Shown here: positions 2,235-3,157 of the stretch, in pieces
How the letters are laid out: each line of letters starts with the position of its first letter
How positions within the stretch are numbered: the stretch's first letter is position 1
The notes under the pieces: generated by a model
What the model saw: the letters and a program-made list of their open reading frames with translations, nothing else
Told to the model about the DNA's origin: nothing
Database searches by the model: none
Translations under genes and position numbers: made by a program
Assembly (NCBI GenBank): GCA_048941015.1
Contig: JBHLNZ010000054.1
Location: 1-19,730 of the forward strand
Direction of reading: 5' to 3'
Length of the DNA: 19,730 nt
Source: Promethearchaeota archaeon
GTDB taxonomy: Archaea > Asgardarchaeota > Lokiarchaeia > Sigyniarchaeales > SOKP01

Positions 2235-2388
2235 TATTTGAATAAATAATACTTGATTATTATTCGCTAAATTTCATTTTGATTAATTTTCATTATGTGA
2301 ATTATATTTTCGTTTAATATCTAACAATTAATAATTTTATCTCTTACATATTAGATTTTCCTTTTTATCCTATGAAAATATAGATATC

Positions 2389-2396
2389 TTTATATA
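2389..2396 (+). promoter_or_regulatory. Putative TATA box for the candidate ncRNA
   Basis: TTTATATA about 30 nt upstream of the 2426-2569 stem. AT-rich context weakens the call. Confidence 0.35.
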
Positions 2397-2425: not shown

Positions 2426-2569
2426 AAAAGTCGGATGACCATGATATTCCAATATATTCTTATACCTAAAGCTGATGGAAATCGGCCAAAATACCTCAAC
2501 CCTTAACCCTGTTATTAGATAAATACGTCTCCTCTTTTTATAATTTAAGTATCATGGTGTCCGATTTTT
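2426..2569 (+). ncRNA. Candidate structured non-coding RNA (~145 nt), family unknown
   Basis: 2426-2448 pairs with 2548-2569 (22 bp, one bulged G, three G-U wobbles). Internal GCUGAU-GGAA-AUCGGC GNRA hairpin at 2471-2486. T-rich 3' end. Confidence 0.5.
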
Positions 2570-2710: not shown

Positions 2711-3157
2711 GTGATTCAAACAATCCAGTTAAGTACAGGTATAGATTTAGAATTTGATGATAAGGCTCCCAACACTCTTTTCGAAATTGTTATTAGTGAT
2801 ATTTTAATCCCAAGGTACAAAGAGAATAAGGATTGGAATTTGAGTTTAAATATTATCATTGAAGAGATGAATCGGTTAATTAGTAAATATGAATTGGATC
2901 CAAAATTGAAATTAGGACTTTTAAATCAAGTAGAAGAACATTTGGATAAGGATATTGAAGAATTGACGGGGACAGCAAAGATTGAAATATTATTTCTAAA
3001 TATGGATGACTATGTAGAAGATATAAAAAAATTGATATCTGCCGGGAAAACAAAAGAGGATTTAAGAAATGATATGGCAAGATTGATTTTTCCTTTAACA
3101 TTGTTCGAATTAGGTGAATTATTTATCTATTTAGGTAAAAGGGCTTTTTTAAAGTAA
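2711..3157 (+). CDS. Hypothetical helical protein (148 aa)
   Basis: GAGGT Shine-Dalgarno just upstream of a GTG start; typical composition; no recognised motif. Confidence 0.75.
   Translation: MIQTIQLSTGIDLEFDDKAPNTLFEIVISDILIPRYKENKDWNLSLNIIIEEMNRLISKYELDPKLKLGLLNQVEEHLDKDIEELTGTAKIEILFLNMDDYVEDIKKLISAGKTKEDLRNDMARLIFPLTLFELGELFIYLGKRAFLK

Follow-up and report, generated by a model that had tools for sequence, protein, structure and literature searches.

Positions ~2420–2572 on the plus strand of the window (the whole 19,730-nt stretch of Promethearchaeota contig JBHLNZ010000054.1 analysed here) almost certainly constitute an independent gene for a structured non-coding RNA of ~145–150 nt. 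In this RNA, a clamp helix, P1, closes a large open multiloop from which two hairpins, P2 and P3, project. The element sits within a 476-nt gap between open reading frames (2235–2710), in agreement with the intergenic placement made in an earlier note on this DNA. The gap is flanked by an M23-peptidase-like ORF (1599–2234) and a 148-codon ORF (2711–3157), and the window contains no tRNA. The parts of the gene are as follows.

2380–2396, plus strand: promoter, palindromic AGATATCT (BRE position) followed by TATA box TTTATATA (2389–2396)
2426–2448, plus strand: P1 5′ arm, lower helix AAAAGUCGGAU, bulged G2437, upper helix ACCAUGAUAUU with the near-invariant CCAUGAU
2452–2469, plus strand: J1/2, invariant single strand AUAUAUUCUUAUACCUAA with the first AUACCU copy
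2471–2486, plus strand: P2 hairpin, GCUGAU-GGAA-AUCGGC
2490–2516, plus strand: J2/3, invariant single strand AAUACCUCAACCCUUAACCCUGUUAUU with the second AUACCU copy and the tandem AACCCUU-AACCCU (2498–2510)
2517–2530, plus strand: P3 hairpin, AGAU-AAAUAC-GUCU, present in the single-sequence fold
2531–2547, plus strand: J3/1, conserved CCUCUUUUU, then a variable A/U-rich stretch
2548–2569, plus strand: P1 3′ arm, AGUAUCAUGGUGUCCGAUUUUU, with a U5 run at its end, probably the terminator

The two ends of the RNA pair on the plus strand (2426–2448 with 2548–2569) over 22 bp with a single bulged G at 2437, exactly the terminal pairing that the earlier note had described. All three non-Watson–Crick pairs of P1 are G–U on this strand (2430–2565, 2436–2558, and 2447–2549), and the one U–G pair of P2 follows the same rule, so that the claim of G–U at every such position holds. 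The proposed GNRA-capped inner hairpin is also present at 2471–2486, with GCUGAU and AUCGGC paired beneath a GGAA cap. Folding of the plus strand yields −33.1 kcal/mol (z = −4.63), which none of 200 dinucleotide shuffles equals, while for the minus strand z is −0.72 and 47 of 200 shuffles do as well. This strand-specific fold, together with covarying stems and conservation across the family, bears out the proposal of a plus-strand structured RNA as opposed to a DNA inverted repeat. The interior of the molecule is poor in G, with 4 G per ~85 nt of loop outside P2, and the end of P3 (GUCU) and the start of J3/1 together read CUCCUC, a motif resembling an anti-Shine–Dalgarno sequence.

The gene appears to carry its own start and stop signals. 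An upstream sequence element and a downstream T/C-rich tract had both been noticed before, and they correspond to TTTATATA at 2389–2396 and to a T5 run with a C/U-rich tract at 2565–2578. The elements TTTAAATA/TTTATATA lie at equal distance upstream in all homologues aligned, with the TATA box ~30 nt before P1 and the palindromic AGATATCT just 5′ of it, and in every homologue P1 is succeeded by a T-run or T/C-rich tract. We infer that transcription starts near 2420, given the distance customary between TATA box and start site in archaea. A UGUC(A/C)YRKGAAAA block is conserved along with AGATATCT immediately 5′ of the TATA box (window 2355–2396 and the aligned upstream regions); they may mark where a regulator binds or where transcription of the preceding gene terminates.

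The source assembly (3.59 Mb, 95% complete) contains one full-length copy of the element, and BLASTN finds one copy, at 66–95% identity, in nearly all of 36 congeneric genomes. A covariance model, R1, was built and then run against 151 genomes of the order. It matches 110 of 131 genomes of the same family, spread over 12 of its 13 genera and almost always once per genome, and none of 19 genomes from three sister families, a set that includes single-contig genomes of 4.4 and 6.0 Mb. When 400 genomes of the phylum were scanned with a two-part motif, 93 of 134 family genomes and 2 of 265 others were positive; the backward-pattern control produced ~30 matches over the 400 genomes. Wider homologues by motif were therefore rejected: of the two outside matches, the one examined is coding sequence, and two matches do not exceed the control rate.

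A further scan, covering one genome per species across all prokaryotes, returned 85 records, namely 84 archaeal metagenome-assembled genomes (MAGs) and one contig labelled as a bacterium; a search of viral contigs found no copy of the RNA. Most of the 84 MAGs are labelled Promethearchaeota or Promethearchaeia, a dozen bear other Asgard labels (Thor-, Hod-, Odin-, and Hermodarchaeota), and ~14 are named 'uncultured archaeon' only. The remaining record (L205, DATKTW010000080.1), deposited as 'Candidatus Nanopelagicaceae bacterium', carries the Lokiarchaeial RNA; the contig, 6791 nt long, is identical with G011:C80 and is thus probably mis-binned or mislabelled. One locus (L104, G082:C389) holds two tandem full-length copies, at 1975–2141 and 2451–2616, ~300 nt apart. 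Genome G081 has divergent copies at two loci (L097 and L098), which have lost part of the AACCCU tandem and of the CCUC motifs.

The earlier note had recognised no RNA family here, and a run of the window against Rfam 15 concurs, with no family matching at the gathering threshold. At E ≤ 10 over 2200–2750, Rfam yields only chance matches (cHP, 14 bits; SurA, 11 bits). Several known RNAs were considered and set aside. The source genome has its own SRP RNA on contig C45. Of the 36 congeners, 26, among them the nearest (G032), have RNase P RNA at another place; the source assembly itself has no RNase P RNA match, which looks like an assembly gap. A Y RNA was rejected because PF05731 (TROVE/Ro) was not found in the source genome (95% complete) and no Y RNA match appears in Rfam at E ≤ 10. 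A C/D box or H/ACA guide was likewise rejected: by inspection of the alignments, no conserved CUGA lies opposite the UGAU of P1, the P2 loops vary (GGAA, GAAA, UAAG, CCCG), the 3′ tail is UUUUU/UUUACU rather than ACA, and no snoRNA family in Rfam matches.

Comparison of homologues supports both the helices and the strand. P1 and P2 form in 27 of 27 homologues, each folded alone. RNAalifold on the raw MAFFT alignment lost P1a and P2 owing to indels, and single-sequence folds and a model-guided alignment were used instead. In the model-guided alignment, 80% of P1 cells are paired, as against 38–48% when the partner is slid by 1–3 columns; 12 pairs have changes on both sides, and the covariation score is reached by 0 of 500 shuffles. 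Because this alignment is fitted to the model, the independent single-sequence folds weigh more. Across 29 distinct homologues, the pair cells of P1 and P3 contain 75 G–U against 27 A–C, an excess that lends support to the plus strand. P2 is swapped in relatives for other perfect hairpins (AGCC-GAAA-GGCU, GAGUC-UAAG-GACUC, CCGC-CCCG-GCGG, and GCCG-UUAAAU-CGGC). P3 is paired in 100% of cells, with U–G changed to U–A in 10 sequences, and divergent genera keep its AGA/UCU stem with a loop of varying length.

The strands that join these helices, AUAUAUUCUUAUACCU and AAUACCUCAACCCUUAACCCUGUUAUUAGAUAAAU, are invariant. Across 27 members of the genus, AUAUAUUCUUAUACCUAA (2452–2469) and AAUACCUCAACCCUUAACCCUGUUAUUAGAUAAAU (2490–2524) form invariant columns, and CCUCUUUUU is conserved, not strictly invariant. 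Even the most divergent genera retain UAUUCUUAUACC, which has three matches elsewhere in the source genome, about the chance level; the 13-mer AACCCUU-AACCCU (2498–2510) is found once in that genome. Sequence is also conserved inside P1, in the near-invariant CCAUGAU/AUCNUGG, where one position is often unpaired (U opposite A, G, U, or C; column pair 28/218). In genus g20, both P2 and one AUACCU copy are missing and UAUUCUUAUACCUCAACCCUUAACCCU runs uninterrupted, which reduces the core to UAUUCUUAUACC plus AACCCU(G/A)UU(A/G)UUAGA. Genus g24 has two divergent copies with some CCUC motifs lost.

P2 is flanked by a direct repeat of AUACCU (window 2463–2497; the relevant loci are L095, L096, and L099). 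Since g20 lacks the hairpin together with one of the repeats, P2 may go back to an old insertion that duplicated its flanks, or recombination between the AUACCU repeats may have removed it there. The boundaries of P2 misfit bulge–helix–bulge (BHB) geometry, with 2–3 of 4 pairs.

In ~25 of 111 matching genomes, the gene is longer, at 181–221 nt. Introns of ~30 nt, one or two per gene, are present in about a quarter of species; the gene at L100 has two, and the source-genome copy has none. We retrieved 26 insertions and tested each by the canonical BHB rule, under which a 4-bp central helix pairs the end of exon 1 with the 3′ part of the intron and the cut follows the second base of each 3-nt bulge (bioRxiv 10.64898/2026.10.13.758758). 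At the boundaries that restore the invariant sequence, the central helix has 4 of 4 pairs in 19 of the 26 insertions and 3 of 4 in the other 7, whereas only 2–4% of controls with the 3′ boundary slid or the intron shuffled reach 4 of 4. The insertion is exactly 30 nt long in 20 of 26 cases. About 10 insertion sites are used, equivalent to window positions 2462–2516, all of them in the invariant strands and none in P1 or P2. The sites that fall in each strand are listed here.

2462/2463 and 2463/2464: intron sites of relatives in J1/2
2497/98, 2499/2500, 2504/05, 2505/06, 2506/07, 2511/12, and 2515/16: intron sites of relatives in J2/3

By this geometry, the insertions in relatives place the RNA among those that carry BHB (tRNA-type) introns, and the transcript of intron-bearing relatives is very likely spliced, by the tRNA splicing endonuclease, to the invariant sequence. 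The lineage has heavily interrupted tRNA genes (bioRxiv 10.64898/2026.10.13.758758). ARAGORN reports only 19 tRNAs in the source genome (G000; 95% complete, 3.6 Mb), 7 of them with introns, a result consistent with such interruption; many tRNA genes of this genome are probably hidden by multiple or non-canonical introns. The literature searched, in which subscription journals are thinly covered, contains no such RNA and no BHB introns in small regulatory RNAs.

Taken together, the sequence features are best explained, tentatively and at a little under an even chance, by a promoter-bearing RNA, spliced in intron-bearing relatives, that would act in trans by base pairing through its G-poor loop. 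In such a mechanism, P1 would serve as a stabilising clamp, and the exposed invariant strands would contact other RNAs, with UACCUC, UACCUA, CUCCUC, and AACCCU pairing to purine-rich sequences such as Shine–Dalgarno regions. In intron-bearing species, the precursor would be cut by the tRNA splicing endonuclease and then religated to the invariant sequence. The loop motifs UACCUC, UACCUA, and CUCCUC resemble the anti-Shine–Dalgarno end of 16S rRNA, GAUCACCUCCU, and the conserved 16S end of the source genome is located on contig C101. The layout of clamp and loop is compatible with a trans-acting RNA that pairs by several short seeds.

A search for an extended antisense target found none beyond chance in the source genome or in 16S/23S rRNA; the best non-self duplexes are interrupted. 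The best rRNA site, in the 3′ part of 23S, scores z = −3.1 in G073 and −1.6 in the source genome; as the site differs between genera, it was not accepted as a target. Short Shine–Dalgarno-like seeds are beyond judgement by computation alone. With no extended target found, we infer the function, and base pairing as the mode of action is a possibility that we hold a shade less firmly than the composite reading above. Against it, ~60 invariant unpaired bases exceed a typical seed and would fit a protein or ribonucleoprotein (RNP) surface equally well, and the g24 copies dispense with some CCUC motifs.

An RNP scaffold or protein sponge, in which the invariant strands and CCAUGAU/AUCNUGG would bind proteins much as Y RNA, 7SK, or CsrB do, would accommodate nearly as well the long invariant stretches, the motif repeats, and the conservation inside P1. 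This alternative is unlikely overall, and it is the strongest of those weighed. It would account for ~60 unpaired invariant bases with their recurring short motifs (two AUACCU and two AACCCU), for sequence conservation inside a helix at which one position is often unpaired, and for an RNA abundant enough to give a contig in each of the four metatranscriptomes examined; the lack of an RNA target also speaks for it. Weighing against it, no TROVE/Ro protein was found in the source genome and no partner gene is linked to the RNA: the downstream genes vary and are often convergent, and the 148-aa neighbour often lies far from the RNA and occurs also in a sister family that lacks it. A more specific proposal, an abundant housekeeping RNA of one Asgard family that would be spliced by the tRNA endonuclease, perhaps circularised, and form the core of an unknown RNP, is improbable.

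The 148-aa protein (2711–3157) is mostly helical, shares 62–88% identity across the family and 32–40% in the sister family, and matches no Pfam or NCBIfam family; it constitutes an orphan family at the level of the order. Its gene is limited to Loki-type archaea, occurs also in the sister family without the RNA, and often lies far from the RNA, and it was rejected as a partner on these grounds. In the largest genus, the genes downstream of the RNA vary and are often convergent. The sole steady neighbour is an upstream HDAC-family gene, with a CoiA-like nuclease gene often intervening before the RNA; in four sister-family genomes, the surroundings of the HDAC gene contain no homologue of the RNA, even with filters off. 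An M23-peptidase-like gene (1599–2234) stands between the CoiA-like gene and the RNA in this genome, G032, and G036 only, and elsewhere the CoiA-like or HDAC gene is directly upstream of the RNA.

Sequence libraries offer a view of the transcript in relatives. Runs with words from the invariant core number 19, of which 16 are recorded as RNA, and come from 18 studies. Four metatranscriptomes, from four studies, each yield one contig of 141–162 nt, close to the length predicted for the RNA. These contigs are <90% identical to the window and so derive from relatives. Their matches are confined to the RNA, extending from 2426/2440 to 2539/2546 of the window. In contig X14, CGGAAAAU 5′ of the match reads as the relative's own sequence, and the 3′ tails of X14 and X15 read ..AUCAUGUUUUCCGAUUUUUCC, the relative's 3′ arm and U-run. 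Other unmatched tails match Illumina adapter sequence (TCTTCCGATCT, then AGA...). The window flanks outside 2426–2546 have no contig cover and were not counted toward transcript ends. We read the contigs as a discrete small RNA in relatives; as evidence of transcription they are strandless, and some DNA can be present in RNA libraries.

Contig X9 (141 nt, depth 20.9; window span 2440–2556) joins the 3′ arm of P1 to its 5′ arm at a shared CAUG, with ..UGAAUAUCAUG running directly into AUAGUAAAAUAUAUUCUUA. At 141 nt it is 30 nt longer than a 111-nt circle, as expected of a cyclic unitig at k = 31. The junction could be a circular isoform or a template switch by reverse transcriptase in the palindromic AUCAUGAU. 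A reading built on the former takes P1 as a processing stem and the working form as circular or end-trimmed, ~111 nt long, with the invariant loop; it concerns the mature form of the RNA, not its function. Both the direct passage from 3′ arm to 5′ arm and the length of X9 fit a circle, and archaeal ligases join small RNAs into circles when the two ends sit in a terminal stem (PMC9014305). We nevertheless regard it as rather improbable, for X9 is the one contig with this junction, whose 4-nt repeat (CAUG) sits inside a palindrome, a setting in which reverse transcriptases are known to switch templates artefactually. The contigs of the three remaining runs are linear, with tails past the match, two of them reading through the 3′ arm of the lower stem; P1 has no 3-nt bulges and is therefore not a BHB site; and metagenome contigs searched for the permuted order yielded 77 matches, none with the RNA core and consistent with chance only.

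A small-protein gene or a type I toxin-like fold-back, with its start locked in the stem, is very improbable. The AUG in P1 (2442) does lie within the nearly invariant CCAUGAU and opens a 21-codon frame in the window, but the frame over the invariant bases is not maintained (frame 2 in 19 species, frame 1 in 16, frame 0 in 2), some AUG frames have only 3 codons, and some species have ACG or no AUG. Not even third positions vary: all bases are invariant, unlike in an evolving coding region.

Least probable, with next to no weight, are two further readings. The stretch AACCCUUAACCCU, at 1.86 copies of a 7-nt unit, could pass for the template of a telomerase-like RNA, being an invariant, single-stranded tandem repeat with a hairpin alongside; yet an AACCCTT array (3 units, 1 mismatch allowed) occurs in none of 135 family genomes, nor in the source genome, the RVT_1 reverse transcriptase was not found in the source genome, and AACCCUUAAAACCCU disrupts the register in one divergent copy. 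A MITE or other DNA inverted repeat, suggested by the 22-bp terminal inverted repeats, is countered by one copy per genome, a single copy with none dispersed in the source genome, and G–U pairs that favour one strand, and a cis-acting leader of the 148-aa gene, which follows on the same strand after 141 nt, in synteny within the genus, by the intervening U-run terminator and by other genera in which that gene is kilobases to hundreds of kilobases off or the neighbour is convergent.

Asgard archaea have hardly been explored for non-coding RNAs. The RNA described here is under extreme sequence constraint, and it appears well expressed, with relatives assembled from sediment and wetland metatranscriptomes. 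About 10 intron sites outside tRNA would provide a compact test bed for the arrival and persistence of BHB introns, and the substrates of the archaeal splicing endonuclease would extend to a small non-coding RNA. The partner, once found, could reveal a lineage-specific layer of RNA function, either translation control or a new RNP, in organisms related to the ancestor of eukaryotes. Were the housekeeping proposal true, it would represent a prokaryotic spliced RNP-core RNA, akin to the Y, vault, and sn-type RNAs of eukaryotes, among the closest relatives of eukaryotes. The alignment and covariance model would support a new Rfam family.

Four known systems invite comparison. With a telomerase template, the RNA shares a single-stranded, C-rich 7-mer in 1.86 copies, an adjoining hairpin, and a terminal stem, but the Loki family is without matching DNA repeats (135 genomes) and the source genome without a reverse transcriptase. 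The earlier note had loosely likened the element to Y RNA or 6S-like architectures, and the architectural resemblance stands: Y RNA (RF00019) and bacterial Y-like RNAs also have a long, bulged end stem, a pyrimidine-rich loop, a 3′ oligo-U, and a length of ~100–150 nt. The likeness ends there, with no Rfam match at E ≤ 10 and no Ro/TROVE gene in the source genome. In Y RNAs, conservation resides in the Ro-binding portion of the stem, whereas in the Loki RNA it is the loop sequence that is invariant.

Some archaeal trans-acting sRNAs, such as sRNA154 and sRNA162, carry C/U-rich, anti-ribosome-binding-site loops. The Loki RNA has in common with these two RNAs of Methanosarcina mazei its own promoter, a U-tract terminator, a length within 100–250 nt, and exposed pyrimidine-rich CCUC strands. 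It differs from them in an invariant stretch far longer than a seed, in its presence at about one copy per genome throughout a family, and in the tRNA-type introns of that family, which are unreported for regulatory sRNAs in the literature searched. The introns themselves follow the pattern of the established archaeal BHB hosts (tRNA, rRNA, and cbf5 pre-mRNA), with the same 4-bp central helix and a predicted cut after the second bulge base. In contrast to those hosts, the Loki host is a small non-coding RNA, in which ~10 sites are packed into ~55 nt and the intron is nearly fixed at 30 nt.
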